Positions 14,013 to 64,000 of a DNA stretch of 64,000 bases are shown here, piece by piece. A model generated the notes under the pieces. It saw nothing but the letters and a program-made list of their open reading frames with translations. It was not told the DNA's origin and searched no databases. A program made the translations under genes and the position numbers. The stretch is from an uncultured Candidatus Saccharibacteria bacterium (GTDB lineage: Bacteria; Patescibacteriota; Minisyncoccia; Phycocordibacterales; UBA918). Location of the stretch: positions 463,672-527,671 of the forward strand of contig CAYNQD010000001.1 of the NCBI GenBank assembly GCA_964399295.1. Direction: 5' to 3'. The stretch's first letter is position 1. Each line of letters opens with the position of its first letter.

Positions 14013-14918
14013 TTAATGATTGCCAACAAAGGAGATATCCCAGTGATCTGGTGGCCCATGGCGGTAGTAAATATTTCCGTCCGGATCTTGCCATTTAGAA
14101 TTAGAACCAGAGACCCTAGTAAAATTATTCATAATATAATTATTTACGCTGCTATCTTTCGAGGATAAGTCAATCTTATATCCATTGCCGTGACTATAAT
14201 CACCAGAAGCATGTCCGGCCTCAGTCCCCCCCGTAACAATAATCGGCCCACCAAAGCCTTGCTGAAATTTATTCAGTCCATTAATTGTATTTTGCTGGAT
14301 ACCATCAAGTGATGTGCAGTTCGTCCTGGTCCTATCTGAACACTCACCACTTGAGCGGACAGTTATACCATTATTTAAATTACTTACCGCATCAGCGTGA
14401 GTATACTGACCAGCTGAAGGCGGGGGCGTAGGAGCTCCCGTAGTAGGGACATAAACATCATCGCTCGCATTGCGAGAATACTGAAGTCCGTCCGTCTGAA
14501 GCTGACATTGCACCTCAGCCCAAGGGCCCCAGCCCGATATTTGTCCTGCTGTAGGACCACTACCCACCAGACCTCTCATTATGGTGTCAATGAGCAACCA
14601 AGAAGCCATCACAATAATGAGTCCAATAATCGCATTTTGAAATTTTGTTTTGGCCGCGTCGAGCGCCGTTTGATTGCCACCAGAAGTCACAAGCCCAAAA
14701 CCGGCAACCAATAGTAAAACAGCGAAAATCAAAAAAATAATCCCAAACAACCAAACAACAATCCCATTCACCATGTCTATCAAATTACAAAAACTGCAAT
14801 CAGTACCATCACAGGTCAAGAATCCGCCATAGGGAACAGCATTGGCGGTATCAAGTGGAGCCAAAACCAAAATAAACGCTATCGCAACAAAACTCAGACC
14901 TTTAAAAAAATTTTTCAT
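14013..14918 (-). CDS. secreted/membrane protein: signal peptide, Cys-rich VirB2/TrbC-like two-helix hairpin, C-terminal putative Zn metallopeptidase-like cell-wall hydrolase domain
   Basis: N-terminus MKNFFKGLSFVAIAFILVLAPLDTANA then CDGTDCSFC followed by two hydrophobic helices. C-terminal His/Asp motifs (YSHGNGYKIDLS ... RHGPPDHWD) resemble LAS/M15-type peptidases; that assignment is tentative. Confidence 0.5.
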   Translation of the reverse strand: MKNFFKGLSFVAIAFILVLAPLDTANAVPYGGFLTCDGTDCSFCNLIDMVNGIVVWLFGIIFLIFAVLLLVAGFGLVTSGGNQTALDAAKTKFQNAIIGLIIVMASWLLIDTIMRGLVGSGPTAGQISGWGPWAEVQCQLQTDGLQYSRNASDDVYVPTTGAPTPPPSAGQYTHADAVSNLNNGITVRSSGECSDRTRTNCTSLDGIQQNTINGLNKFQQGFGGPIIVTGGTEAGHASGDYSHGNGYKIDLSSKDSSVNNYIMNNFTRVSGSNSKWQDPDGNIYYRHGPPDHWDISFVGNH

Positions 14919-14940
14919 ATCAATAATAATTTACTATTTA

Positions 14941-15936
14941 TCATAATTTTTCCGCTATTTTGTTAATGTTTTCCACATAATGGCGAGTCTCTTTGTAGCC
15001 GGTGTTGGGGGTACAGCTGGTATTGCTCGTACCATAGCAACCGGAGCTATCCCACTCACACTGCCAACCTTTTAGCCCGGGACAATCCTTACTCGGTAAA
15101 TTGGCTTTTGGGCCGCCATTGTAAGCAGCTAGAGCTAGGTCGGTATCACCGCCGTAATCATTATACAATTGGTTAAAATATTTAGCGCTGAGAGCTAGAT
15201 TATAAGCATCGTCGTCACGTAATTTTGCCGCTATTTGCGCTTGGGTCATGCCCGCCAAATCAGGATCGAGACCTCGCGCCGTGCTGACCAATAATTGCCC
15301 ACAACCATAGGCTGTCCCGAAATTTGTAGCTGGCCCAGTCTTATTTGTGCAGTTACTGGATTCCTGAGAAATTAGGGATTTGAAGATTTTTTGTTGCGCG
15401 GGATCGGTTATGCCATTTGCCGCGGCGGCGGCTTCAATATCTGTCTGTAGGCTGCCGGAGCTACTGATTCCATTGACCCGGTTACTGATTTCTGAAGATG
15501 ACAAGACTTTTTCATTATCCCCAGAAGCAGTTCTTCTGGCCGCGGCTTGAGCTGTCGGCTGAGCTACGCACTGGATATCATTCCAAACACCATAAGTGGG
15601 ATCATCGACCATTACTTTCATTCCAAAATCCACAATCAGCCAGCCCGCCAAAAATATAATGTATCCAACAATGACATTGGCTATTATCCTTTTAGCTTGA
15701 GTTTTTGCTTCCACCGCGCCGACAGACGAAACCAGCCTCAGTCCCATGACGGCAATAATCAAGGCTACGATGATAAACAACACCACTCCGAGCCAATCGA
15801 CAACATTATTAATCAACTTAACAACAGAACAAAACTGACAAGGGTCTTCCCCCGGACCGCCACAAGGCACCAAGCCCGCCGCTGCTGTCATCTCTGGCAA
15901 GGCAATAATCAAAGCGACAAAAACAGCTTTCAACAT
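14941..15936 (-). CDS. paralogous VirB2/TrbC-like N-terminal hairpin fused to a family-1 lytic transglycosylase (SLT) domain
   Basis: N-terminus shares the CGGPGEDPCQFC plus two-helix architecture with the neighbouring gene. C-terminal SLT motifs (ISQESS, GCGQLL, AAYNGG). Confidence 0.65.
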   Translation of the reverse strand: MLKAVFVALIIALPEMTAAAGLVPCGGPGEDPCQFCSVVKLINNVVDWLGVVLFIIVALIIAVMGLRLVSSVGAVEAKTQAKRIIANVIVGYIIFLAGWLIVDFGMKVMVDDPTYGVWNDIQCVAQPTAQAAARRTASGDNEKVLSSSEISNRVNGISSSGSLQTDIEAAAAANGITDPAQQKIFKSLISQESSNCTNKTGPATNFGTAYGCGQLLVSTARGLDPDLAGMTQAQIAAKLRDDDAYNLALSAKYFNQLYNDYGGDTDLALAAYNGGPKANLPSKDCPGLKGWQCEWDSSGCYGTSNTSCTPNTGYKETRHYVENINKIAEKL

Positions 15937-22871: not shown

Positions 22872-22875
22872 GAAT

Positions 22876-22935
22876 CACAAAAGGAGCGCGGCAAAAAAGG
22901 CCTTAAAAGGCCTTTTTTGCCGCGCTCCTTTTGTG
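22876..22935. terminator. 28-bp perfect inverted repeat (cacaaaaggagcgcggcaaaaaaggcctt / aaggccttttttgccgcgctccttttgtg); bidirectional terminator between convergent genes
   Basis: Read directly; lies between the stop codons at 22871 (+) and 22944 (-). Confidence 0.7.
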
Positions 22936-22943
22936 ATTCAAAC

Positions 22944-32895: not shown

Positions 32896-32960
32896 AAATG
32901 AGCACTTTTCGCTATACTGATTTCAGATTGGGCTCTAGATTTTTCAAAAATCAGCAAAAA

Positions 32961-33059
32961 CTCGAGCCCATGACTCATTCTCAGGATACGTTGCAAAATA
33001 TAGCGATTTTAGGAGACTCGATAGTTCTCACATGACTGCTGACAGTCAGAGTCGTACAC
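32961..33059. repeat. island repeat copy A: conserved ~60-bp block (gagcccatgact..ttgcaaaatatagcgattttaggagactcgatag.tctcac) followed by a degenerate tRNA-Gln 3-prime-end remnant (atgactgctgacagtcagagtcgtacac)
   Basis: Aligned by eye to copies B, C and D. Confidence 0.7.
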
Positions 33060-33198
33060 TTGTGTGGTGAGACACCGTAAGCACATTATGTGAGTTGGTA
33101 TATGGCTTCAACTAGGCGTCTAATTGTGAATGATACAAATGAGACACAAAACACCCGTTTCGGTCTATGTATCATTAAATATAGAGCGTATTATGAAC

Positions 33199-34929: not shown

Positions 34930-34931
34930 AG

Positions 34932-35031
34932 CTCGAGCCCATGACTCGTTCTGAAACTACATTGCAAAATATAGCGATTTTAGGAGACTCGATAGGTCTC
35001 ACTACTCTGCTGTGTCCCGCGGTCTAGAACC
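34932..35031. repeat. island repeat copy B (conserved block plus degenerate tRNA-Gln 3-prime remnant tgctgtgtcccgcggtctagaacc)
   Basis: Near-identical core ttgcaaaatatagcgattttaggagactcgatag shared with copy A. Confidence 0.7.
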
Positions 35032-35098
35032 TTTTGCGGTGACAGGCCATAAGGATATTCTGATAAAGATTCCTATACCAAACTGATCTGTCTCGGTC

Positions 35099-36382: not shown

Positions 36383-37192
36383 TCAAGAACACTTCCTGGC
36401 AGCCGACAACCCGACGCCGTCGTTGCGGTTGACGCCCCAATAGCTGCCGACGTAGAGCCCGTAGGAATCGAAGCTGCCGACGTAGACACGGTCACCGTCC
36501 GAGCCGAGACTGGATGTCCTAACGTAGATGCTTTCGAAGAGTCGGACACCACGAACCTCGAAATAAGTCGTGGTGAACCAGCTCATCTCGGCGGCGTTCG
36601 GCACCTTCTCGAGTGCGGAGAGAAGCTTGCCCTGCTCGTTCCACGTCTTGCTGGTCGAGTTTTGGATGGGCGTCTTCTTGATCATGAGCCACCCGAAAGA
36701 CGTCTTGTCCTCGCGGGCGAACTTCTGATCGGCATACCACCCACCCGTCTTCGAGTAGAAGTGGGCGGATTGGATCTCCCGAACGTCGAGCAGTGACATC
36801 GCCGTGGGCGGTGCGGGCATGACGGCGTAACCGTTTTCCTTGCACCACTTGAGCACGTCCAAGGGCGGCAGACTTTCGGCGAGTGCCGTGATCTGTTCGA
36901 CGGTGTAAACGATGCTCGGGCGAGCCTCGGTGACTTCCTCGGGCGTAATGAAATCCGCGGCGAGGATTGACTGTGCCAGACCGTAGTCGGGCGCTTTGGC
37001 TGAGAAGCGACGGATGCCTTCTGCGAGATACACGGCGAAGCCGGGATGCTCGTTCAGGATCTGTGCGCTTTCGTCGTTGAGTCCCGCCTTGTTGTATTGG
37101 GCGCGGAACGTTTCGGTAGCTCTCTGTCCTTTCGGACTGTCTGCGGTTACCAGTGCAGACGTGTTCAATGTTTTCATCGACATCATCTCCAT
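36383..37192 (-). CDS. DGR target (variable) protein; C-terminal variable region VR at 36395..36509
   Basis: The last ~38 codons (..LGSDGDRVYVGSFDSYGLYVGSYWGVNRNDGVGLSAAR) are a 115-bp near-repeat of the TR at 37632..37746, with mismatches concentrated at TR adenines. GC-rich relative to its surroundings. Confidence 0.75.
   Translation of the reverse strand: MEMMSMKTLNTSALVTADSPKGQRATETFRAQYNKAGLNDESAQILNEHPGFAVYLAEGIRRFSAKAPDYGLAQSILAADFITPEEVTEARPSIVYTVEQITALAESLPPLDVLKWCKENGYAVMPAPPTAMSLLDVREIQSAHFYSKTGGWYADQKFAREDKTSFGWLMIKKTPIQNSTSKTWNEQGKLLSALEKVPNAAEMSWFTTTYFEVRGVRLFESIYVRTSSLGSDGDRVYVGSFDSYGLYVGSYWGVNRNDGVGLSAARKCS
36395..36509 (-). repeat. DGR variable region (VR)
   Basis: 115 bp; 14 mismatches against TR, 12 at positions where TR has A. 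The identical GC-rich 3-prime end gcgtcgggttgtcggctgccagg (IMH-like) is followed by an 8-bp-stem/3-nt-loop hairpin cgaatgct-ggg-agcattcg at 36346..36364. Confidence 0.75.
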
Positions 37193-37631
37193 TTGCTGAT
37201 TTACCGAGAACGCTCGGAACGACTTGCCTCAGTTTGAGACGAGCTTTCTAGGCCCTGAATGTAAGGCTCAAAAAGCTCGTCTCAACAATGATTCTCTATC
37301 AAAGAACACCCATATAGTATAGCAAATAAATGGCTATTTGTCAATGATTTTGGCGACCTGTCGACTATCGGTTATACTATGAATATCATGCTAATGTAGC
37401 TTGGATTACGGTTCAAGCTCGCGAGATATCTCACCTTGAGATATCGCCAGATTGCCAGTGGTTTATGGATCACGGCAGAGCGCGATTAAGGATAGAGAGA
37501 ACTTCTTGCTCGCTTCTAGAGGAGATGCTTTGAAAGAGGCTGCTTCCGAATAAAATTCAGAGATGAGAGGATATAGACCTGCAAAGGTAGTAAGCCTCAA
37601 GTCTCGGTGACATAGACGGAAGCGGGCAATA

Positions 37632-37746
37632 TCTCGACTCGGACGGTAACCGTGTCAACGTCGGCAACTTCGATTCCGACGGGCTCAACGTCAACGGCTA
37701 TTGGGACGACAACCGCAACGACAGCGTCGGGTTGTCGGCTGCCAGG
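37632..37746 (+). repeat. DGR template region (TR), rich in AAC codons
   Basis: TR sense (+ strand) matches the reverse complement of VR. TR AAC/GAC/AGC codons correspond to TAC/GGC/AGC/GAC/GTC in VR. Confidence 0.75.
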
Positions 37747-37794
37747 CAGTCAAACTCTATCCAAGGAAACTCCCGTCAAAAACGGGAGTTTCTG

Positions 37795-38145
37795 TTAACG
37801 ATCCTTCGTTGACTTGATCCACCCTCCGAGCATCCTCCCTATTTCGTCAAGATTGGCTTCGATGATGATGTATTTTTTAGCATCAATCGCTTTTACATCT
37901 TTCATGAGGCGAATGCAGACTCGCAGAAAATTAAGTTTGACGCTCGTCTTCTCCAAGGTCGGCAGCTTATCTGACTTAGACTGCTGGCTTGCGAAAATTA
38001 TACCTTCTAATACATCGATTAGTAGACTTTCGCATTTTTGCCAGAGCGTGTAGCGATCTTGCTTTGGAACGGATAGGCGCAGATTATAGAAATCTTTGTA
38101 GAGATCGTAGCTCTTCTTGAAAATTGGTATATCTAAATCATTCAT
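37795..38145 (-). CDS. avd: DGR accessory variability determinant-like protein (four-helix-bundle family, TIGR02436-type)
   Basis: MNDLDIPIFKKSYDLYKDFYNLRLSVPKQDRYTLWQKCE ... EIGRMLGGWIKS matches the four-helix-bundle/Avd family. Confidence 0.7.
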   Translation of the reverse strand: MNDLDIPIFKKSYDLYKDFYNLRLSVPKQDRYTLWQKCESLLIDVLEGIIFASQQSKSDKLPTLEKTSVKLNFLRVCIRLMKDVKAIDAKKYIIIEANLDEIGRMLGGWIKSTKDR

Positions 38146-39247
<1,102 letters not shown>

Positions 39248-39297
39248 AGATTTAAGTATGACTAAATAAGAGTCTAAGACACCTAAAAATACCAGTT

Positions 39298-39373
39298 CAA
39301 GCCCATGACTGGTTCAAATTTAAGATTGCAAAATATAGCGATTTTAAGAGTCTCGATAGCTCTCACATGACTG
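39298..39373. repeat. island repeat copy C (conserved block abutting the authentic tRNA-Gln 3-prime end)
   Basis: caagcccatgactggttc..attgcaaaatatagcgattttaagagtctcgatagctctcacatgactgctg runs directly into the tRNA-Gln. Confidence 0.7.
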
Positions 39374-39444
39374 CTGCCCGACAAGGACTCGAACCTCGAT
39401 ACCATGGACCAAAACCATGTGTCCTACCATTAGACGATCGGGCA
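39374..39444 (-). tRNA. tRNA-Gln (anticodon TTG) with U1-A72 pair and G73 discriminator
   Basis: Manual fold of the minus strand: acceptor tgcccga/tcgggca, D-stem gtct/ggac, anticodon stem catgg/ccatg with loop ttTTGgt, T-loop ggttcgagtcc. Confidence 0.75.
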
Positions 39445-53138: not shown

Positions 53139-53714
53139 TTAGGATTCTAGCAAAACTTCACGCTGAATAGTACCGGCACTTCCAATACTGCCACAGGATT
53201 TATTGTATCCTTGGACAGAAATAATCGTACATCGTCCGCCAGGCTCGCAGGTTTTTGTCGACCCACCAGAATAGCCTGGTAAAATTGTCTGCATGTTGCC
53301 TATCTCAACCCCAGACGAATTGTTGTCGGAATTAAGCAAGACCATAGCCACCCTTGAGCAACGCTCGGCTCCAACACCACCCCAACTAAACTCAAAATCA
53401 TAACGGTGAGCGTCACCTTCCAAGACTGCTACAGGGTCTGAGCTTTTCATAATATTATCACCAAAACATTCAAAAATTACAGTATTCCCATCCTCCAACT
53501 CTTGAAATTCCTTCAACCGCCAGTACTGCGCGCATTCCAGTCCGGCATTGGCGGCATGAAAAGCGATTTCAGAATCTTTGGAATTGGTCGATAAGCTGAG
53601 CTGCTTGATGGTGAGATCTAAAATGGTCAAACCAACCGACACCACCACCCCCACCACAATGAGCGATATAAGTAAGGCAAAACCTGATGTTTGTTGATTT
53701 TTAGTTGTTATCAT
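53139..53714 (-). CDS. pseudopilin-like protein (prepilin-type N-terminal hydrophobic helix without Glu5)
   Basis: N-terminus ..TSGFALLISLIVVGVVV; last gene of the minor-pilin run. Confidence 0.45.
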   Translation of the reverse strand: MITTKNQQTSGFALLISLIVVGVVVSVGLTILDLTIKQLSLSTNSKDSEIAFHAANAGLECAQYWRLKEFQELEDGNTVIFECFGDNIMKSSDPVAVLEGDAHRYDFEFSWGGVGAERCSRVAMVLLNSDNNSSGVEIGNMQTILPGYSGGSTKTCEPGGRCTIISVQGYNKSCGSIGSAGTIQREVLLES

Positions 53715-54315
53715 AGGTATTAAATAAATAGGTTTCTATCTCAACTCTTTGCTCGGCTATCAGGGAGCCGGTGCGCCAAGTCACAACTGAACGTACCATA
53801 ACTTCTCTTTCCTCAGCGCCAGAAGGAATGGAAAAATACACCCGACGCGTGAACGGAGTGGGGGTATTGCCAGCGGCAGTGTGAGTAAACCAAGACCTCT
53901 CACTATTATTAGGACGTTGACGCAAGAGACAAGGAGAGTTCACCCCACTACAAGAGACTGGTGTTTTCAACTTTCCGTTATTAACATTAGAATCCCACTC
54001 CAAACCGCAACCAGAGGAGCCAAAACAAGCTGAATAAATTCCACCGGAATTTTGTTTAAATTTGGACCAAGGATCATCAAAGCCAACTGGATTGTGAATA
54101 TTTTGCAACTGTAATTCATTTCTGGCTTTCTGCGCCAACTCAATACCCTCCTGTGCCAGAAAAAAGGCTTGTATTTGCTCAGTGGCAAAGGTGGAACTTT
54201 TGGCGGTTTTGGAAGATATAGCCATCGGTACCGTAATCACAATCAGTAAGATAGAAATCGCCACCAAAGTTTCAACCAAAGAAAAACCGTTTTGTTTGTG
54301 ATGAAAATGTATCAT
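53701..54315 (-). CDS. type IV minor pilin (prepilin-type N-terminal cleavage/methylation domain)
   Basis: NGFSLVETLVAISILLIV (G-F-x-x-x-E motif). Confidence 0.65.
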   Translation of the reverse strand: MIHFHHKQNGFSLVETLVAISILLIVITVPMAISSKTAKSSTFATEQIQAFFLAQEGIELAQKARNELQLQNIHNPVGFDDPWSKFKQNSGGIYSACFGSSGCGLEWDSNVNNGKLKTPVSCSGVNSPCLLRQRPNNSERSWFTHTAAGNTPTPFTRRVYFSIPSGAEEREVMVRSVVTWRTGSLIAEQRVEIETYLFNTYDNN

Positions 54316-54956
54316 ATATCCAAAATTCTTTGCGTTACCGTTGTCTGCATATTATAAACCTTACCAGTTGGATTGTCTTTTTCTTTGGCCCTTAGGTGAA
54401 TAGTGATGGTTGGCTGCTCCACATCTATATCAGCAGTATCCAGAGACTCACTGCCGGTAACAAAAAACTGCGCGTCTGTTATCTCCAAGCCAGAGGACAC
54501 AATAGATTGAGGTGTATTATCCCCAATTCGTCTAAATAATTTGTTGGTGTCAGTATCGTAAAAATACAAAATACGCGAAGATCCGGAAGAACCAGTGATA
54601 CTATCTCCTCCTTCAAAAAAAGACACGCCTTGAAACCGGAAACTTGAGGTATTCCCACTGGCACAATCGCGGGTGTCTTTATCTAAATTTTCATGTTCGT
54701 TACTACTACCATAAAAAACACCCCCTGAGCTGGCGCTGTCACAATAATAATAATACCCCGTTCTCATTTCCCTGGTCATGCTGTCCATCGCGAAAGCCAA
54801 GGTGGTCATGATGCTTTGTTCGGCTTGAAGCTGTCTGTTGGTAGCGATAACCGCTAGCAAAGCTCCCACCGCGATAGTCACCACCACCGCGAACACTCCC
54901 AAAGACACGATCATTTCAATCAAAGAGAAGCCGGATTGTCTTTTTTTTATAAACAT
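54312..54956 (-). CDS. type IV minor pilin
   Basis: SGFSLIEMIVSLGVFAVVV. Confidence 0.65.
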   Translation of the reverse strand: MFIKKRQSGFSLIEMIVSLGVFAVVVTIAVGALLAVIATNRQLQAEQSIMTTLAFAMDSMTREMRTGYYYYCDSASSGGVFYGSSNEHENLDKDTRDCASGNTSSFRFQGVSFFEGGDSITGSSGSSRILYFYDTDTNKLFRRIGDNTPQSIVSSGLEITDAQFFVTGSESLDTADIDVEQPTITIHLRAKEKDNPTGKVYNMQTTVTQRILDI

Positions 54957-54965
54957 ACAACAATT

Positions 54966-55568
54966 TTATTTTACCGAAATTTGACCAGTACGAGTAATTT
55001 CAACTGTGCGTTTGTCAGCCGCCGCTCCTCGCAGACAAATATCTATTTCCGCAGCTACTGTATCAGTATCCCAAGCGCCTGATGACTCATGGAAAAGCGC
55101 GTCGAAATTTGGTCTTTCAAAAGTTATCGACATGGCATCAGGTGTGTATTTAACATCACCGTTTCCATCTACACCTCTAATATCGCAAATTTCAAAACGC
55201 GGATCTAAAACCCCTTGCCGACCAAATTCTTCACCCGAGTTAAAATAATTATTACCGTTTATATCTCTAAACAGAGAGTATTTTTGGTTGGCTCCTGACT
55301 TAGAAAAATGAAGGCCGTAAACATTGCGGAAATCTGTCGATTCACCAATTGCTCCCACCGCGAAAAGCTGTATCTCCCGAGCTTGAAAAGCTACTTCGTA
55401 AGCCTGGCTTTGTAGCAAGACCGCGCTGTTGAAAGCGCTGTGCCTAGCCAAAATAACGCTCATCACAATCACCAAAATACTGATGCTCACCAAAAGCTCC
55501 ACCAAACCAAAACCGCTGTTTTTTAAATGGCGACCAATCCGCACGTAGTGATAATTATTTTGGAACAT
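54966..55568 (-). CDS. type IV minor pilin
   Basis: SGFGLVELLVSISILVIV. Confidence 0.65.
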   Translation of the reverse strand: MFQNNYHYVRIGRHLKNSGFGLVELLVSISILVIVMSVILARHSAFNSAVLLQSQAYEVAFQAREIQLFAVGAIGESTDFRNVYGLHFSKSGANQKYSLFRDINGNNYFNSGEEFGRQGVLDPRFEICDIRGVDGNGDVKYTPDAMSITFERPNFDALFHESSGAWDTDTVAAEIDICLRGAAADKRTVEITRTGQISVK

Positions 55569-56394
55569 AGCTTACTAATTTGATGACATCAATCGCAAAG
55601 AAAAAAACCGTGAGAAAACCAAGAATCAGAAAGGGCGCAAATGGCACCGCACTCTTAATTGTAAGCTCTGTTGGCAAGAAACGTAAGCGTGGTTGTCCAC
55701 GTTTTTTCAATGACTGCAAACCAAGAAGAGCCAGCCCCGCCACGGCTCCAATCCAAAATGACCACACCAAAAGTGAAAACACCCAAGCCTGACCAACAAA
55801 AATCCCCAGCGGAAAAACCAACTTCACATCGCCAAAGCCAATCCACCGCCCATCTGATATTCGCCACAGTAAAAAAAGAAACAACGCGCCAAAAAAAGCG
55901 GATCCTAAATTCCAAAAGAAAGTGGAAATTTCCAAACCCAGCCAAAGCAAATAAAATTGTTGCCCCATAGCCAAAACCAAAAGCGCAAAAACTAATTTAT
56001 CGGGAATAATGAGGTGATACAAATCATAAACCGCGATCACCACCAAAACCGCCACAACCGCCCAGAAAAGAAAAATCAAAAACAAATCAGCCAAACACCA
56101 AGCCACCCCAACAAACAAAAGCCCCGTCAATAGCTCCACCAAAAAATAACGAACCGGGATAATCGCGCCACAGCTCCGGCATCGTCCTCTCAAAACCAAA
56201 TAAGACAGGAGTGGAATCAGCTCATAGGCCTTTAGCTTGGCATTGCAAGACAAGCAATGCGAACTACCATTTAGTGATTTGCCGGTATGCAAACGATAAA
56301 TAAAAACATTGAGAAAACTGCCAATAATCACGCCGAAAATAAAAGTAAAAAAAACCATCAAGCCGACAGGTAAATCAGAAAATATTTGTAACAT
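55555..56394 (-). CDS. pilD: prepilin peptidase (A24 family) PilD
   Basis: N-terminal Zn-binding CxxC pairs (CLSCNAKL..CRSCGAII) and eight TM helices typical of PilD. Confidence 0.8.
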   Translation of the reverse strand: MLQIFSDLPVGLMVFFTFIFGVIIGSFLNVFIYRLHTGKSLNGSSHCLSCNAKLKAYELIPLLSYLVLRGRCRSCGAIIPVRYFLVELLTGLLFVGVAWCLADLFLIFLFWAVVAVLVVIAVYDLYHLIIPDKLVFALLVLAMGQQFYLLWLGLEISTFFWNLGSAFFGALFLFLLWRISDGRWIGFGDVKLVFPLGIFVGQAWVFSLLVWSFWIGAVAGLALLGLQSLKKRGQPRLRFLPTELTIKSAVPFAPFLILGFLTVFFFAIDVIKLVSYVPK

Positions 56395-56415
56395 GACACA
56401 CTAGTATAACACTGC

Positions 56416-56485
56416 ATCAATGTTCAGTCGTGGTTTTACCCTTATCGAACTTCTTGTTGTAATCGCTATTATTGGTATTTTGGCG
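56416..56485 (+). repeat. 70-bp inverted-repeat copy 1: duplicate of the pilA 5-prime coding end on the opposite strand; opens a 29-aa pilin N-terminal fragment ORF (MFSRGFTLIELLVVIAIIGILAFAGPVIHV, 56420..56509)
   Basis: 70/70 identity to the reverse complement of 56941..57010. Confidence 0.85.
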
Positions 56486-56564
56486 TTTGCTGGGCCGGTG
56501 ATACATGTAGCATTGTCGCTGGTACGGATGTTCTTTGTAACTAATTTATAATTTAACCCTAAAA

Positions 56565-56590
56565 ACAAAAAACCGCCGAGGCGGTTTTTT
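56565..56590 (-). terminator. rho-independent terminator of pilA (aaaaaaccgccgaggcggtttttt)
   Basis: Perfect GC hairpin flanked by A/T runs immediately after the pilA stop. Confidence 0.75.
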
Positions 56591-56610
56591 TGTTTTAATA
56601 ATAAGTATTA

Positions 56611-57018
56611 TTATGGACAAACAGTAGCATCTGCACCCTTGCTGGCAGATCTTTCTCCTGAAACTCCTGTGCTATCAACACAGAAATAGTTACCATTTCT
56701 TAACTGTATTTCAGCAGCATACTCTGTAGCAGCAGAATCACAATCCGCAGTGTTTCCTGTCTGTGCGCCAGCAGCTGTCAGAAGTCCCGCGACCTTGGTA
56801 TCTGCACAAACGCCGGTATAAACAAAGTTTGTATTGTTATAAAAGATTTCGGCTTGACTGCGAAGATTATTCATAGACGTTTTTGCTGACGCGTCTGAGC
56901 CACTGTCTCGAGCATCATTCAAAGAAGCCAGCACTACAGCCGCCAAAATACCAATAATAGCGATTACAACAAGAAGTTCGATAAGGGTAAAACCACGACT
57001 GAACATTGATTTTTTCAT
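56611..57018 (-). CDS. pilA: type IV major pilin
   Basis: MKKSMFSRGFTLIELLVVIAIIGILAAVV class III signal peptide; C-terminal Cys pair. Confidence 0.85.
   Translation of the reverse strand: MKKSMFSRGFTLIELLVVIAIIGILAAVVLASLNDARDSGSDASAKTSMNNLRSQAEIFYNNTNFVYTGVCADTKVAGLLTAAGAQTGNTADCDSAATEYAAEIQLRNGNYFCVDSTGVSGERSASKGADATVCP
56941..57010 (-). repeat. 70-bp inverted-repeat copy 2 (pilA 5-prime coding end)
   Basis: Perfect inverted partner of 56416..56485. Confidence 0.85.
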
Positions 57019-57212
57019 AGATTTTGTTAAATGAATTATTAAATTAATTAATACCTGTACTTAATGATTCAGATATCAGCTGTGTACCTGAATGAATTAG
57101 GGTAAGGTTGGCCTACGCTTTGCGTTGAGCTCACCTTTCATTATACAAACTTTATCAACTTAATAATTCGGCTTTTGTGGATAAAGAATGGGCTGATTAT
57201 TCGGCCGTCTGA

Positions 57213-58430
57213 TTAAAACGCATTAGTCAATCCATAAATCGGCATCAGTACTGAAGCCAGAAGTACGCCCACGCCAAGACCAAGAAGCACTATCATTAGA
57301 GGTTCGATTAGTCCGATGAGGGTATCGACAGCGTTGTTTACCTCACGACGATAGAAGTTGGCCAGAGTTTGCAGAATTTCCGACAAGCTACCTGTCTCCT
57401 CACCCACCTTTACCATCTGGGTCAAAACTCCGGGGATTTCTGGATACTCGGAAATAGCGTCGCCGAAAGAGCGCCCACTTTTGACTTCAAAAAGCGCTTC
57501 TTCGATAATTTCACGGTAGACCATGTTGTCTACCACATCGGAAGTCACTTCGAGCGCCTGCACCATGGAGATACCGCGCTCTAGCATAGTGGCGAGGTTG
57601 TCGCATATCCTGGTTAGGAGAAGTTTGCGTTGCAGGTCTCCCAAAATAGGGACGGAAATAAGAAACTCATCGAAAGTTCTTCTGCCAACATCAGTGTGAA
57701 TAAACCGCCACAAAAATACCCCACCCACTGCAAGCGCGATCAAAATTATGCCGATATAATCAACCATAAAATCAGAAATCCCGATGACGATTTTGGTGTA
57801 AATAGGCAACTCCTGTCCGGAAGCGGTCAAAATATCGGCAATCTTTGGGATTACCATGGTGAGCATAAGGCTCATTACCGCGATAAAAATTCCCACAACG
57901 AAAATCGGGTAGACCAGAGCGTTGCGAGTCTTGGAGATAATCTCGTAAGAACGATCCAGGTAATCCGCCAAATAATCGAAAGATTTTTCCAGTGATCCAG
58001 ATTCTTCACCTGAGCGCACTAGGTTTATGTAAAAACTGGAAAAAATTTGCGGGTGCGCTGACATGGCCTTGGAGATGGAATTTCCACCCTGCAAATCCTC
58101 CACGATATTATTCATGACTGACTTTAGTTGAGGATTTTCTATTTCTACCGATAGTAGCCGGAAGATACGCAGTGGCGACACATGGGCTTGAAAAAGAGTA
58201 GCTATCTGCCTGGATAAAATAACAATTTCTTTGTTGGAGACAGAATTAAAAAGGTTAAATTGAACATTAACCAAGCTCTTCAGGCCACTGCTTTGCTCCA
58301 CCGGATCAATTGAAACCACGGTGTAACCACGTTTTTGAATAGCCGTGATAGCGGCGTCAATCGTAATCGCTTCTACCGTTCCCTCACGTTGAACATTGGT
58401 ATTATCGACAGCTACGTAGTTGAAAAGCAT
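57213..58430 (-). CDS. pilC: type IV pilus inner-membrane platform protein PilC (GspF family)
   Basis: Two GspF repeats, three TM segments. Confidence 0.8.
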   Translation of the reverse strand: MLFNYVAVDNTNVQREGTVEAITIDAAITAIQKRGYTVVSIDPVEQSSGLKSLVNVQFNLFNSVSNKEIVILSRQIATLFQAHVSPLRIFRLLSVEIENPQLKSVMNNIVEDLQGGNSISKAMSAHPQIFSSFYINLVRSGEESGSLEKSFDYLADYLDRSYEIISKTRNALVYPIFVVGIFIAVMSLMLTMVIPKIADILTASGQELPIYTKIVIGISDFMVDYIGIILIALAVGGVFLWRFIHTDVGRRTFDEFLISVPILGDLQRKLLLTRICDNLATMLERGISMVQALEVTSDVVDNMVYREIIEEALFEVKSGRSFGDAISEYPEIPGVLTQMVKVGEETGSLSEILQTLANFYRREVNNAVDTLIGLIEPLMIVLLGLGVGVLLASVLMPIYGLTNAF

Positions 58431-58440
58431 ATTGTTAAAT

Positions 58441-59508
58441 TTATATTAGTCTCTCCAAACCTTTAGGGTTGGTTGAATAAGTAAAAGCATTCTCGACCGT
58501 GATGTCACCGTTTTGAACCAATCGAGCCAAGGAACGGTTCATGTCGATCATTCCCTGCTCCAAACCAGTCTCAATCACTGACGGAATTTCGTGAATGCGA
58601 TTTTCGCGGATGAGATTGGCGACAGCGGTGTTGTTTATCAATAATTCATAAGCCGGCACCAAGCCGCCAGCTATATGCGGAATCAAACGCTGTGAGAAAA
58701 TTGCAATCAAAGAACCCGACAACTGAACGCGAATTTGGGACTGCTGATCTCCGGGGAAGGAGTCGATAATACGGTTGATGGTCTGAGCGGCATCGTTGGT
58801 GTGGAGGGTTGAGTACACCAGGTGGCCGGTCTCGGCGGCCGTCACGGCGGTGGCGATGGTATCGGCGTTTCGCATTTCCCCCACCAAGATAACGTCAACG
58901 TCTTGGCGGAAAGCGGCGTTAAGAGCTTCGTGAAAACTATTGGTATCAATTCCGACCTCTCTCTGGTCAATCAGGGATTTCTCCTCCACGTACACATACT
59001 CAATCGGGTCTTCGATAGTCACGATATGTTCGGCTCGAGTTTTGTTGATGATGTTTACCATGGAAGCCAGAGTTGTGGACTTACCTTGTCCGACAGGCCC
59101 CACGCACAAAAAGAATCCCTGAGTCCGTTGGGTAAAGCTCTCCAAAATTGGCGGGAGATTTAATTCTTCAAAAGTTTTAATGACATTGGGAATCAAACGC
59201 AGAGCAATCGCCTTTTTTCCTCGCTGAAAAAAAGCGTTGCCACGAAAACGGACGGACTGAGTATTTTCATAAGAGAAATCTATCTCTTCTCTTTTAGCCA
59301 TTCTCTCGTACTGATCTGGACGCATCAGCACCTGCGCGAAAGCATCAACATCGGCGTTGGTGAGGATGGGTTTTTTGACCAGCGGAATCAGGGTTCCCGA
59401 AACCCGGATCAAAGGATGAGCGCCTACGGAAAAATGGATATCAGAAGCCTTCTCCGCCAAGAGCAAGTCAATCAACAACTGCAATTCTTTTTTATAATCT
59501 ACTGCCAT
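58441..59508 (-). CDS. pilT: type IV pilus retraction ATPase PilT
   Basis: Walker A GPVGQGKSTT, Asp box, Walker B, His box; about 355 aa, typical of PilT. Confidence 0.8.
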   Translation of the reverse strand: MAVDYKKELQLLIDLLLAEKASDIHFSVGAHPLIRVSGTLIPLVKKPILTNADVDAFAQVLMRPDQYERMAKREEIDFSYENTQSVRFRGNAFFQRGKKAIALRLIPNVIKTFEELNLPPILESFTQRTQGFFLCVGPVGQGKSTTLASMVNIINKTRAEHIVTIEDPIEYVYVEEKSLIDQREVGIDTNSFHEALNAAFRQDVDVILVGEMRNADTIATAVTAAETGHLVYSTLHTNDAAQTINRIIDSFPGDQQSQIRVQLSGSLIAIFSQRLIPHIAGGLVPAYELLINNTAVANLIRENRIHEIPSVIETGLEQGMIDMNRSLARLVQNGDITVENAFTYSTNPKGLERLI

Positions 59509-59517
59509 AATTTAAAA

Positions 59518-59892
59518 TTATTCTTGTTTTTTAACTATTTCTTCAACTTTTTTTACCACCTCGCTGGGAATGGAATCAGCCTTGATGATATATCCGATAG
59601 CTCCCGCTTCTTCCGCTTCCCTGATATCCTCATCTTGCCCTTGGTTGGTGAGAAAGATACTGGACTTAATTTGATTGGGAAAACGTTGGTTTATCATTTT
59701 TAATAATTCTACCCCGTTGGTACCAGGCATTATCATGTCCAAAAGAACAACGTCATAAACCTGACCAGCGCTAAGCAAAGACAGCGCGCTGGAACTTCCA
59801 TCGGCAGTCTCTATGTCGTGGCCACAGCCAATAAACTTAGTGGCATACATGTCCCTTAGAAACAAATCATCATCAACTAGCAATATCTTCAT
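59518..59892 (-). CDS. single-domain response regulator (CheY/PilH-like receiver)
   Basis: MKILLVDDD...DVVLLDMIMPGTNGVELL receiver motifs including the phospho-acceptor Asp. Confidence 0.75.
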   Translation of the reverse strand: MKILLVDDDLFLRDMYATKFIGCGHDIETADGSSSALSLLSAGQVYDVVLLDMIMPGTNGVELLKMINQRFPNQIKSSIFLTNQGQDEDIREAEEAGAIGYIIKADSIPSEVVKKVEEIVKKQE

Positions 59893-61705
59893 TAATGTTT
59901 ATTATATCGCTTTCGGCGGACTCAATGACTTGGTTATCGACAGTTCCTATGGTTTCGTCTATCTCCGTATCTACACCAACCTTGGTGCCAAAAGCGTTCA
60001 TTTCTTCATAAGGTATGACGTGGTTTAAAGCTTTTATAATCGCGTCTTCTTTCATGGACATAAAACCATGTCGCCTAGCCACTTGAAAAATCTGATCTTC
60101 GGAAGCTTCCCTTAAAATCAATTCCTGTATTTCTTCATTAACCTCAAAAGCTTCCATTACCGCCACTCGCCCTCTAAGCCCGGTAGCACAGCCAGGAGCC
60201 GGCTCCGGGTAGATGATGGTACGATTTTTGGGAATGCGTTCTTGGTATTTTTGTGGCAAAGTTTTGAAAGCTTCTTCAATCATGATTTCGGTACTGGAAT
60301 TGATTTCTTCTTCCCGACCAGAACCAGGGCAAATCCTACGAGCTAGTCTTTGAGCAATGGCGAGCTTGAGGGTCGGGGCAATCAAATATGGGTCAATCCC
60401 CATGTCTATCAAGCGAGGAATAACACCGATGGAATTGTTGGTGTGAATAGTGGATAATACCAAGTGTCCAGTGAGAGCGGCCTGAATAGCCAGCTGAGCT
60501 GTTTCCTTATCACGAATTTCTCCCACCATAATTATATCCGGGTCTTGTCGTAAAGCCGCTCTCAGACCATTGGCAAAAGTGTATCCGATTTCCGGACGCA
60601 CCTGCGACTGGCTGACACCTTCGATGTTGTATTCCACCGGATCCTCCAGCGACAACACATTCTTAGTCAATCTATCAACTTCAGACAACATAGCGTAAAG
60701 CGTGGTGGATTTTCCAGAGCCGGTGGGACCGGAAATAAGAATGATTCCGTAAGGCTCCTTTATCGCGTTCCGTACAATCTTCAATAAGTGCGGTGAAATT
60801 CCCGCTTCTTCCAGTGAACGCACACCTTTTTCATTATCCAAGATACGCATTACCACCTTTTCGCCGTGATTGGTCGGCAAGACAGAAACACGAAAGTCAA
60901 TTTTTCGGCCGTCAAAAGTGGCTGAAAAACGCCCGTCCTGCGGCTTGCGTCTTTCATCAAGCCGCATTGATGACAAAATTTTTATTCTCGCCACCACCGC
61001 CATGTGAACATTTTTTGGCAGTTCCAAAGAGGTTGTGAGGATACCATCCACTCTAAATCTGACGATGATTTTTAATTCTGTCGGCTCGACGTGAATATCG
61101 GAAGCATTGCCGTCAACGGCATAACGAAGAATCGTCGCGACAATTTTTGTCACCGGAGCATCCTCTTCAATATGCTCCATGGTTTTTCTGTCTTCTTCGG
61201 AAGCCTCCTCCACTTCAGAAGCGATTTCGGCATTCAATTCTCCTTCCAGAGTTTCCAGAGCGTCTGTAACCTCACCTTTTAAGTTGGCGTAAAAACTCTG
61301 CAACTTCTTGATATCCTCCTCCAGCATGAACATCAATTTGTAGGCAATGTTGAATTTTGTGCTGACAAAATTTAAGACTTCTTTAATCTGCAAGCTATCG
61401 GGGTCGTTGGCTCCTACTATCAAAACTTCACTCTCCATCATCAATGGTATCAGACGATAATGTACCGCTGATTCTTCCGAGATATAAGCGAGCAATTCTT
61501 CATTAACGCTAAAATTTTCCGGAATCACAAAATACGGTACTTGATAGTATTCGGCATACAACTTTCTTAGTATATCTCTAGGAATTCCCCTCTCTATCAA
61601 AACCGCCTCGTAAGAGTTACCAGTTTCTTTCACCAATTGCTCTACCTGACGAACAAATGACTCCGTAACTTCACCGCTTTCTAATAATTTTTCTAATGGA
61701 TTCAT
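59873..61705 (-). CDS. pilB: type IV pilus assembly ATPase PilB (GspE family)
   Basis: N1/N2 domains, Walker A GPTGSGKSTT, tetracysteine region (CPGSGREEE...). Confidence 0.85.
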   Translation of the reverse strand: MNPLEKLLESGEVTESFVRQVEQLVKETGNSYEAVLIERGIPRDILRKLYAEYYQVPYFVIPENFSVNEELLAYISEESAVHYRLIPLMMESEVLIVGANDPDSLQIKEVLNFVSTKFNIAYKLMFMLEEDIKKLQSFYANLKGEVTDALETLEGELNAEIASEVEEASEEDRKTMEHIEEDAPVTKIVATILRYAVDGNASDIHVEPTELKIIVRFRVDGILTTSLELPKNVHMAVVARIKILSSMRLDERRKPQDGRFSATFDGRKIDFRVSVLPTNHGEKVVMRILDNEKGVRSLEEAGISPHLLKIVRNAIKEPYGIILISGPTGSGKSTTLYAMLSEVDRLTKNVLSLEDPVEYNIEGVSQSQVRPEIGYTFANGLRAALRQDPDIIMVGEIRDKETAQLAIQAALTGHLVLSTIHTNNSIGVIPRLIDMGIDPYLIAPTLKLAIAQRLARRICPGSGREEEINSSTEIMIEEAFKTLPQKYQERIPKNRTIIYPEPAPGCATGLRGRVAVMEAFEVNEEIQELILREASEDQIFQVARRHGFMSMKEDAIIKALNHVIPYEEMNAFGTKVGVDTEIDETIGTVDNQVIESAESDIININEDIAS

Positions 61706-61713
61706 GACCAGCC

Positions 61714-62040
61714 TTAGAAATTATTATTGTTTGTAAAGGATGTGGAATTCTTAGAAAAAGGATTATCTTTGCCGACCGGCTGAACTTCTATCGGCTGGGT
61801 GAAATTCTTATAAGAGATAAATTTTGGGTCTTCAAACAATGAGGTGTCAATATTTATTTGACTGAGGGTATTTCTGCGTTGTATGAAAAGCTGCGTGTTG
61901 GCCAACATTTCAGTGGTTACATACTCGTTGTCGGAAAAGGCCATTTGTGAATTGTTGTTCTGCACAAAAATATAATAACCAGAAAAAGCAAAAGTTAAGA
62001 TTATTAGCAGTACCAAGATATTTTTAAGAGTTGAATTCAT
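61714..62040 (-). CDS. hypothetical membrane-anchored protein in the pilus operon
   Basis: Single N-terminal TM helix; position between pilO-like and pilB genes. Confidence 0.4.
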   Translation of the reverse strand: MNSTLKNILVLLIILTFAFSGYYIFVQNNNSQMAFSDNEYVTTEMLANTQLFIQRRNTLSQINIDTSLFEDPKFISYKNFTQPIEVQPVGKDNPFSKNSTSFTNNNNF

Positions 62041-62049
62041 AAAATAAAT

Positions 62050-62646
62050 TTAAATACGCGAGTAAGTTACAATCTTAATTTCGGAATTTAGCCTTTCCAG
62101 AGTTGACTGTCTACTTTGAACACCGGGCGTGGTAGCATCAGCAGTAGCCGTAGTAATCTTTAAATCATGTACCTCTAAAGGATAGTTGCTTTGCTCTAGG
62201 AGTAGTAAGAAGGCTTTTGTTTGTTCGTAGGTTCCGACAACACTGGCGGTAAAAGTGTGCTTGATGGGAATAGTCAGATGACTACTGGTGGCCACCACCG
62301 GAACTTGGTTTAGCTGGCTTTTTTCATCGTAAACGATATTTCTAATTTCCAGGCCAGAAGCACCGGCCAAATTAAATATATCTTTGGAAACAGCCACGTT
62401 ATCGACCTTATCCGGCATGTAAGTAACCAACGCCTTACGATCGGTTGCCGATATGCCATTGAGTCGATTAACTAAAGTGGATAATATTTGATTTACCTCA
62501 CTCACCTTTTCTCTTTCAACCTTGTACTGCGAAATTGCGTCTTGAGCCGCTCCAATTCTGATAAACGTGGGCTGAACGTAAATAACGGCAATACTGATTG
62601 CTAAAGCGGCAAGAATTATTTGAAAGAAAAGTGAATTGAAAATCAT
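62050..62646 (-). CDS. PilO-like pilus assembly protein
   Basis: N-terminal TM helix then coiled-coil, position after the pilN-like gene. Confidence 0.45.
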   Translation of the reverse strand: MIFNSLFFQIILAALAISIAVIYVQPTFIRIGAAQDAISQYKVEREKVSEVNQILSTLVNRLNGISATDRKALVTYMPDKVDNVAVSKDIFNLAGASGLEIRNIVYDEKSQLNQVPVVATSSHLTIPIKHTFTASVVGTYEQTKAFLLLLEQSNYPLEVHDLKITTATADATTPGVQSRQSTLERLNSEIKIVTYSRI

Positions 62647-62649
62647 ATA

Positions 62650-63384
62650 CTATTGATTAGGCAGCGAATCCTCAAGAGCTTCCTGCTCAAACACATCGCC
62701 AAGAGCGCTGTCGGACATTTCAAGCGATTCATCAAAAGACGCAGGTATTTCAAATGATTGGTTGGAAGGTTTTGTTAAATGAGGAATTAAATTGGTGGGA
62801 ACCGAAAGCTCAGTGTTGAACACAATACTGATATCCCTTGAAATTAAATTCCCTGATTGAGATTGTTGGTTTGGGTAATTTAGCTTTAAATCACCCACTC
62901 TGTCCACCATAAGCCTTTCATCTTTTTCAAAAACCCCTCTCTGAAATAAGACTGCGTCGAAAGTTTTGGCTTCCATTTCTGTCTTGATGGCAATTTTGGT
63001 GTCATCAACTCTCTTCAAATCCATACTCTGGATTCCAACCGGACCTAAAGTAGCTAATTCTAAAGAGTCAAAGATGGCCGCTATGGAGGCTGTGTGCTTT
63101 AGGCGATTGGAAGCTTGAAAGAGTCTATTGTCTTCATCCAAAAGAAGCCGCATATCTTCCTCCTTAAACAAAGCAATGGCGTTGTTTAAGGCGAGGATTT
63201 CAGCATCACGGTCTTTATTTAACTTCTTTTCGTATGCAAAGACTCCCAAAGTAGCGATCAAAACCGCGAAGAAAAATACCCTGACAATGAGCGTACCAAT
63301 AAAGATTGGCCTAGGAGCATCACGACGAACGCTCTTATTTGGGTTGCGCTTTGGAATGAACGATGTATTGGCTGACTCTGGCAT
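62650..63384 (-). CDS. PilN-like pilus assembly protein
   Basis: Short cytoplasmic N-terminus, one TM helix (FIGTLIVRVFFFAVLIATLGVFAY), periplasmic domain; follows pilM. Confidence 0.45.
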   Translation of the reverse strand: MPESANTSFIPKRNPNKSVRRDAPRPIFIGTLIVRVFFFAVLIATLGVFAYEKKLNKDRDAEILALNNAIALFKEEDMRLLLDEDNRLFQASNRLKHTASIAAIFDSLELATLGPVGIQSMDLKRVDDTKIAIKTEMEAKTFDAVLFQRGVFEKDERLMVDRVGDLKLNYPNQQSQSGNLISRDISIVFNTELSVPTNLIPHLTKPSNQSFEIPASFDESLEMSDSALGDVFEQEALEDSLPNQ

Positions 63385-63438
63385 AAAAATATTATACTTG
63401 GTTTAAGACTTAGTGGCGACTCAAGCCTGTGGACGAGA

Positions 63439-64000
63439 TTATTCGAATATTCTTAAAGTTGCTCCTAAAGCTACGTGAAAGGTGGGACTGAGTTCGGACA
63501 TCATATCTTCCATAAAAGCCGGGTAAGCGACTTTGCTAAAAGTACTGACGGCGGAGATGTCTCGTCTTAAAGCGTCCTGCACTAAAATCTTGGTAGTAGG
63601 AAAAATAGAACCACCACCCGTCAAATAGACAGCGTCTAATTTTATTGAATTTCTGTCTTCATATTCTTTGAGCACCTGCCTAAATTCCTGCCAAGCTCTT
63701 TCGTAGGAATTGTGATGAGCTCGCTCCATCTCACGAAAATCTTTATCCTCTTTTCTGATGTTGCGCTTTTTTATTTCCGCTTCTTCAAAAGACAGTTCAA
63801 AAGTACTGGCGATTCTTTTGGTGGCGATTACGCCGCCGGCGCGCACGCGGTGCATGCGTTGCAACAGGCCTTTTTGCGCGATGTATAATTTGGTGGAAAC
63901 TGCACCGATATCAATAATCGCGATATTCTCTTCCTCTTTATATACGCCACGAATGGAACTGAAACATTCAATTTCGGTTTGGGGTTGTTTTAGATTGGCA
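63439..64000 (-). CDS. pilM: type IV pilus assembly protein PilM (actin-like ATPase), 5-prime end beyond the window
   Basis: C-terminal PilM/FtsA-like motifs (VYLTGGGSIFPTTKILVQDAL; ATLRIFE); the frame continues open to the window edge. Confidence 0.7.
   Translation of the reverse strand, partial: ANLKQPQTEIECFSSIRGVYKEEENIAIIDIGAVSTKLYIAQKGLLQRMHRVRAGGVIATKRIASTFELSFEEAEIKKRNIRKEDKDFREMERAHHNSYERAWQEFRQVLKEYEDRNSIKLDAVYLTGGGSIFPTTKILVQDALRRDISAVSTFSKVAYPAFMEDMMSELSPTFHVALGATLRIFE

Follow-up and report, generated by a model that had tools for sequence, protein, structure and literature searches.

A perfect 70-bp inverted repeat at the major pilin gene of a Patescibacteria type IV pilus cluster: probable rearrangement scar, possible flip switch

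In Moraxella bovis and M. lacunata, the recombinase Piv reportedly inverts a segment of ∼2.1 kb (tfpQ/tfpI) that carries two alternative pilin bodies, with sites of ∼26 bp and piv next door, and in M. lacunata one orientation is said to yield no functional pilin. R64-type shufflons, in which Rci acts on pilV C-terminal segments, comprise several segments with 19-bp sfx sites and the gene rci. Exchange between long inverted copies can also proceed through RecA, as between Salmonella tufA and tufB or between rRNA or insertion sequence (IS) copies; low-frequency, reversible inversion and homogenization are then expected, and the minimal processing length for such exchange is tens of base pairs. 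A further class, that of gene-altering inversions and partial intergenic invertons, pairs an arm within a coding sequence (CDS) with one in a short gene fragment on the opposite strand (Milman et al. 2023, PMC9881135; Chanin et al., bioRxiv 10.1101/2023.03.11.532203); its members normally swap homologous variable domains, usually lie beside a recombinase gene, and are validated by read heterogeneity. Here, we describe a perfect 70-bp inverted repeat at pilA, the major type IV pilin gene, in a 64-kb stretch of a Patescibacteria (candidate phyla radiation [CPR]) genome; “the window” denotes this whole stretch, and coordinates of all features are given in Table 1. The right arm is the start of pilA itself, and the left arm is a second copy of it near the prepilin peptidase gene pilD. 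We consider it an even call that the left arm represents a pilin 5′ pseudogene fragment, inverted, truncated, lineage-specific and of recent origin, by which pilA has become invertible through homologous recombination, and a young rearrangement scar is more probable than a built-in flip switch. The literature yielded no paper that links Patescibacteria (CPR) to pilin inversion or to invertons.

Were the segment between the arms to flip, the event would, by analogy, work most like the Moraxella inversion, in which the exchange point reportedly also lies inside conserved N-terminal pilin codons (here the right arm is pilA codons 4 to 26), the promoter and first codons are likewise said to stay fixed while the remainder of the gene flips, and the reported ON/OFF outcome of M. 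lacunata resembles the one predicted below. The present locus differs in its shorter segment (455 bp), its single pilin body facing a 21-codon non-pilin tail and a stop, its 70-bp perfect arms and its neighbors pilC and pilD. In a Pfam scan of ∼57 open reading frames (ORFs), essentially all plausible genes of the window, recombinases of the serine, tyrosine and Piv/IS110 (DEDD) types were all absent, in agreement with a first-pass annotation made from the sequence, which had reported no invertase there; recA does not lie in the window either. Inversion would, as in the shufflon, alter a type IV pilin-family gene past its constant 5′ part, but here with a single segment, 70-bp arms and no tyrosine recombinase in the window. 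Of the hallmarks of site-specific invertible elements (Hin/Gin, Fim and Piv types), flanking inverted repeats are present, while a recombinase in or next to the segment is absent from the window. The locus should not be classed with the Piv or shufflon families, having no adjacent recombinase, no short sites and no alternative cassettes. Known RecA-type systems share with it a long, perfect inverted homology without a dedicated enzyme, and 70 of 70 identical bases exceed the minimal length. Their repeats are, however, whole genes or IS elements and usually distant, whereas here a gene-start fragment of 70 bp lies only 455 bp away, so that a flip would act directly on the regulation of one gene. 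By its layout, the locus fits the formal definition of a partial intergenic or gene-altering inverton: a 135-aa gene is set against a 43-aa inverted fragment, the target is a surface structure, and “Pilin” is an enriched class among such targets. It departs from described members in that its fragment brings no alternative domain and the window shows no recombinase.

The two arms are identical at 70 of 70 positions, inverted and 455 bp apart, exactly as first annotated, and identity ends abruptly on both sides without one base of extension. The number of matches expected for a 70-bp repeat was 0.00 (dinucleotide-preserving shuffles), and just one other perfect inverted repeat of at least 25 nt occurs in the window, a terminator-type hairpin at ∼22872-22939. 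Neither a further copy of the arm (up to 24 mismatches in 70) nor another major-pilin leader was found in the window, leaving a single repeat pair. Inspection of the repeat output gave no convincing microhomology at the junctions that would hint at template switching. Independent assemblies were available as Logan contigs (k = 31) from at least five runs (SRR16797977, SRR16797978, SRR16797988, SRR16797999 and SRR16798009), among which eight contigs are 100% identical to the window across 2 to 7 kb. The contigs examined (L001-L005) stop exactly k − 1 = 30 nt within an arm, those reaching it from pilD at 56445 and those from pilC at 56981. Since a de Bruijn graph branches at such a repeat, these breaks mark a true repeat, and the 70-bp inverted repeat is physically real in several samples. 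All k-mers of up to 71 nt are common to both orientations of the segment, and the Logan contigs therefore say nothing on orientation. A scan of Joint Genome Institute (JGI) metagenomes with 35 nt of the arm gave no matches, and one with pilD recovered a single relative, 40% identical.

Closer reading of the arms changes several details of the first description. The repeat had been taken as the first 70 bp of pilA but starts at nucleotide 9 of the ORF, 4 nt ahead of a second ATG. It had also been said to bracket pilA, which holds for the body of the gene and its terminator but not for the whole gene, as one arm is inside it. The described adjacency to pilD stands: its ATG (56394) and the left-arm edge are 22 bp apart. 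The ORF opened by the left arm had been read as 29 aa ending FAGPVIHV; it is really 43 aa long, the “tag” in “catgtagca” being out of frame. This 43-aa ORF still matches the Pfam family N_methyl (E = 8e-9) and is probably a pseudogene fragment. Its exact product is not in a 15-billion-protein collection, in which ORFs so short are seldom called. Beyond the left arm, the 81 nt that precede the terminator (segment X) matched neither the rest of the window nor 92 related loci nor pilin genes significantly, and showed no similarity to pilin bodies or to the second pilin genes (pilA2) of the nearest relatives. When the 66 to 81 nt past the left arm were compared with pilins, 193 of 200 DNA shuffles and 217 of 300 protein shuffles scored equal or better. 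A tblastn match of FAGPVIHVALSLVR to ...VVLSALSDAR of one pilA2 did not beat shuffles and was dropped. Segment X is thus not pilin-like, and the window holds no alternative pilin cassette.

The arrangement was compared with 87 related loci, comprising 80 GTDB species representatives and 7 contigs with the nearest pilin homologues. None of them has an inverted pilin-leader copy or an opposite-strand pilin-leader ORF, and none has a perfect inverted repeat of at least 20 nt at a pilin N terminus. The two nearest pilin relatives (81% and 74% identity; L086 and L089) have the order pilC-pilA1-pilA2-pilD, while L006 and L011 have pilC-pilA-pilD with a spacer of ∼110 nt. The pilA-pilD spacer of the window is ∼100 to 150 nt longer than those of relatives, the excess being segment X plus the arm. 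With either nothing or a second co-directional pilin gene at this position in relatives, the site is unstable in the clade and gains and loses pilin genes. Perfect repeats at pilin 5′ ends are common in the clade in direct orientation: tandem pilin paralogues with perfect direct 5′ repeats of 24 to 134 nt, covering the leader and helix-coding stretch, occur in 20 of the 87 loci (3′ of pilC in L010, L014, L015, L036-L038, L042, L044, L058, L063, L067, L071, L080 and others), and two related loci have direct pilin 5′ repeats of 455 to 533 nt. A 70-bp identity is therefore not special here, and pilin 5′ ends routinely recombine with or convert one another in the clade; the pattern points to frequent gene conversion or duplication among Paceibacteria pilin genes. 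These tandem pilins resemble the locus in the window in that perfect identity is limited to the 5′ leader and helix stretch of adjacent genes, with divergence beyond. They differ in that all 20 loci hold direct copies with both genes full length, whereas the copy in the window is inverted and truncated where identity ends. A 22-aa truncated pilin-leader ORF (MLKRYKTKGFTLIELLVVIRAV) lies in direct orientation just 5′ of a full pilin gene in L060 (7324-7392), so pilin 5′ fragments arise elsewhere in the clade too. The first-pass argument that 70 bp of perfect identity speaks for ongoing conversion or inversion is weakened by these repeats, and the alternative offered alongside it, that of a very recent partial duplication, is no less likely.

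Under the scar reading, the left arm would have arisen by rearrangement at the recombination-prone pilA-pilD spacer, and the fragment would stand outside any dedicated, enzyme-driven switch. The absence of a recombinase and of an alternative cassette from the window, the absence of the arrangement from all 87 relatives and the ordinariness of pilin 5′ identity in the clade together argue against such a switch, and the first three leave the shufflon- or piv-like label given at first unsupported. The 70 bp of perfect inverted homology would, as a side effect, make the 455-bp segment a substrate for RecA-type recombination. The outcome of a flip was simulated as an exchange between the arms that inverts 56486-56940. 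This turned over the pilA body and terminator and joined the pilin body to the left ATG, as had been proposed. In the simulated state, the native pilA promoter and 5′ untranslated region (5′UTR) precede a 47-aa stub (MKKS, the leader, then FAGPVIHV...NL and a stop) with the same terminator at its end; the entire pilin ORF, now of 131 aa with the leader MFSRG, moves to the plus strand behind the 21-bp spacer; and pilD is unchanged. A flip would thus separate pilA from its conserved promoter and 5′UTR, leave the stub expressed in its place and put the pilin behind a spacer that offers only a −10-like box. The expected state would be pilin OFF or low, and the same exchange would reverse it. On this model, the geometry would be that of an ON/OFF or promoter swap, with no exchange of antigenic variants. 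Scar origin, RecA route and effects on expression are what we infer.

Several points weigh against the scar reading. The recombinase scan took in 64 kb of a genome of ∼0.6 Mb or more. The word “recent” draws on perfect identity and on absence from distant relatives, the next closest pilD being 72% identical in a homologue search. Among predicted programmed-inversion targets, pilin genes are enriched 8-fold (8.4-fold), and some proven invertons have no recombinase nearby (PMC9881135). The left ATG is in frame, a −10-like box stands 9 nt upstream of it and the terminator is bidirectional; a selected switch would look alike. The scar reading also gives no account of where segment X came from or of how the copy arose. 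The strongest competitor is a selected phase-variation switch, possible but in our judgment doubtful, in which the segment inverts appreciably, through RecA or through a site-specific recombinase encoded outside the window and acting on a core site in the arms, with pilin ON/OFF or a promoter change as the result in a host-attached, ultra-small bacterium. The inverton-like geometry, in which a CDS holds one arm and a short opposite fragment the other, with gene and pseudogene of unequal size (PMC9881135; bioRxiv 10.1101/2023.03.11.532203), would suit it, as would the enrichment of “Pilin” and the existence of recombinase-less loci just cited and the retention of intact ORFs and a working terminator in both orientations. 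Set against this are the lack of a recombinase and of an alternative pilin cassette in the window, arms far longer than typical recombinase sites, the absence of the arrangement from the related loci, and a source assembly that crosses the locus in one orientation. Database records bear on it little. The sole database record of this pilin (P0001, on a 594,086-bp NCBI contig) is the 131-aa form beginning MFSRGF; this is the product expected of the flipped state but equally an internal-start call in the state of the window, and it decides nothing. Exact look-ups of pilA (135 aa, 131 aa and a 119-aa contig-edge form) and of P0001 returned nothing on record. Neither the 47-aa hybrid, which would mark the flipped state, nor the 135-aa product is in the 15-billion-protein collection; the missing hybrid counts weakly against the switch, such short ORFs being rarely called. 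The more specific proposal of a homology-driven, recombinase-independent inversion switch in Paceibacteria (CPR), which would move the major pilin between ON and OFF by separating it from its conserved 5′UTR element, we regard as unlikely.

It is quite improbable that the left copy works without inversion, whether through an RNA duplex in transcripts that run past the pilA terminator into an antisense copy of the pilA start (occluding the start codon or inviting an RNase III cut, and coupling pilA with pilD) or as a 43-aa mini-pilin made of leader and hydrophobic helix. A modeled read-through RNA (57135 to 56395) does fold with the full 70-bp duplex (minimum free energy −271.9 kcal/mol, z = −18.9 versus shuffles), which is true by construction, but a good intrinsic terminator lies between the arms, and pilD apparently carries, downstream of the arm, a conserved −10 box of its own. 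The mini-pilin could point to its N_methyl score and the −10-like box 9 nt upstream, yet the tail of the ORF has no homologue, and no relative keeps the feature for either role. Mis-assembly or chimeric reads as the source of the inverted copy, which a metagenome-derived source, the difficulty of assembling pilin 5′ repeats and runs of N in pilin genes of related genomes might have suggested, are barely credible and effectively refuted by the Logan unitig assemblies of at least five runs, which hold both outer junctions, branch exactly at the arm boundaries and have flanks 100% identical to the window. The runs of N lie in or beside pilin genes of two related metagenome-assembled genomes (MAGs; L021 7833-7856 and 8814-8891, L051 2795-3031 and 3646-3829), and are either scaffold gaps from repeated pilin 5′ ends or masked stretches.

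Type IV pili are the main known surface organelle of Patescibacteria; in cultivated relatives they reportedly serve for host attachment, twitching motility and probably DNA uptake (PMC11623550, PMC10633639). Should the segment invert, a pilin OFF state that can be reversed would offer a simple form of bet-hedging to cells that have very few regulators, and would be the first case of phase variation described in Patescibacteria. If the left arm is a scar only, as we favor, the locus still shows that pilin 5′ ends recombine readily in these genomes.

Table 1. Features of the pilA locus and the surrounding type IV pilus cluster (positions in the window)
Feature	Position	Strand	Description
Left arm of inverted repeat	56416..56485	+	Copy of pilA nt 9-78: 4 nt, ATG, 22 codons (MFSRGFTLIELLVVIAIIGILA)
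Right arm of inverted repeat	56941..57010	-	pilA codons 4-26 plus 1 nt, at the native 5′ end of the gene
Potentially invertible 455-bp segment	56486..56940		Non-pilin tail X, bidirectional terminator, pilA body (codons 27-135)
43-aa left-arm ORF	56420..56551	+	Pilin leader and helix start MFSRGFTLIELLVVIAIIGILA, then unrelated tail FAGPVIHVALSLVRMFFVTNL and stop; ORF ends ...HVALSLVRMFFVTNL and stop
Segment X, between left arm and terminator	56486..56566		81 nt, unique sequence
Bidirectional intrinsic terminator	56567..56590		10-bp stem, A-tract + T-tract; serves pilA and left ORF; found on both strands
pilA, major type IV pilin, 135 aa	56611..57018	-	Class III leader MKKSMFSRG/FTLIE, C-terminal Cys pair; Pfam PF07963 N_methyl, E = 2.4e-8
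pilA promoter and ∼115-nt 5′UTR	57019..57145	-	Outside repeat; −10 box TATAAT at 57145-57140; hairpin TTCAGGTACACAGCTGATATCTGAA at ∼57093-57067
Left arm-pilD spacer, 21 bp	56395..56415		Overlapping −10-like boxes: TGTTATACT (-, 56411-56403, pilD) and TATAAC (+, 56405-56410)
pilD, prepilin peptidase/N-methyltransferase	55555..56394	-	Pfam A24_N_bact 9e-31, Peptidase_A24 2e-11
pilC, platform protein	57213..58430	-	Pfam T2SSF 4.5e-57
pilT	58441-59508	-	Type IV pilus cluster gene
Response regulator	59518-59892	-	In cluster, between pilB and pilT
pilB	59873-61705	-	Type IV pilus cluster gene
Four minor-pilin-like genes	53139-55568	-	In cluster, after pilD

The N terminus of pilA (MKKSMFSRG/FTLIELLVV) has the class III signal peptide (G/F-T-L-I-E) and the N-methylation motif; 4,581 homologues were found (best non-self identity 81%), and its first ATG (57018) aligns with the start codons of relatives. 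Upstream, three features are conserved in an alignment of 18 Paceibacteria loci: the −10 box (C)GTATAAT, which is near invariant; a small hairpin; and TTCAG(A/G)TAC(A/G)CAGCTGATATCTGAA, a likewise near-invariant element at ∼57093-57067 in the window. The extended lower stem of this element has compensatory changes (4 to 10 sequences per pair), and the upper stem is near invariant and tolerates G-U. Given this conservation, pilA has its own promoter and a 5′UTR of ∼115 nt, all outside the right arm. The element matches no Rfam family; at gathering score Rfam returned only tRNAs, and near the locus just subthreshold, terminator-driven matches. It is a candidate for an unnamed cis-regulatory RNA, or possibly an operator, of the major pilin of the clade. 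A sigma-70 consensus scan of 56250-57250 gave no sites and also missed the conserved pilA −10 box, and is thus blind here. A hairpin follows pilA in the equivalent position in relatives as well. In the spacer between the left arm and pilD, the TATAAC box stands 9 nt before the left-arm ATG (56420), and TGnTATAMT boxes are placed similarly, 7 to 9 nt 5′ of the pilD ATG, in L006 (∼8005-8013) and L011 (∼7878-7886); these −10-like boxes are putative promoters. pilD has no Shine-Dalgarno sequence, and in L086 and L089 −10-like boxes stand at a comparable distance from pilA2, a pattern suggesting that transcripts in these genomes are leaderless or nearly so.

The type IV pilus cluster (53139-63864) is a single co-directional run on the minus strand, starting with a pilM fragment and three ORFs of unknown function, in the order pilM..pilB-response regulator-pilT-pilC-pilA-pilD-minor pilins, and is followed by ligA and gatCA. 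Its Pfam content (two T2SSE, T2SSF, Peptidase_A24, PilM_2 and three or four N_methyl ORFs) is likewise all co-directional. Among 185,579 GTDB species representatives, the best identity to pilC was 84%, and the top matches were all Paceibacteria MAGs; the genome belongs to the Patescibacteria (CPR), in the neighborhood of Paceibacteria/“Kaiserbacteria”. The window also encodes, at 3-905 and 14013-15936, DprA, a mediator of DNA uptake, and two proteins with T4SS_pilin domains, one of them with an SLT lytic transglycosylase domain. Their presence beside the pilus cluster is consistent with competence or conjugation-like functions.

Two further sets of repeats occur elsewhere in the window. A family of 103-nt direct repeats has three copies of 75 to 76% identity (32959-33061, 34930-35032 and 39294-39396), with a perfect 34-nt core at 32991/34962. 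The third copy overlaps a tRNA (39374-39444), and the copies bracket a NUDIX/AdoHcyase-like gene and a diversity-generating retroelement (DGR). No integrase for such elements was found in the window; by their arrangement, the repeats may be att-like boundaries of inserted elements. The DGR (36383-39247) consists of bAvd (37795-38145, minus strand), a reverse transcriptase (38146-39247, plus strand) and a pair of 119-nt repeats of 89% identity, the template repeat (TR) at 37632-37750 on the plus strand and the variable repeat (VR) at 36391-36509, at the 3′ end of a minus-strand ORF (36383-37192). Of the 13 mismatches between TR and VR, 10 are at TR adenines. A (GA)15 run at ∼38700-38730 lies inside the reverse transcriptase gene, where the frame splits into overlapping ORFs (38146-38733 and 38585-39247), and could reflect slipped-strand ON/OFF control of the reverse transcriptase, a decayed gene or a sequencing error.

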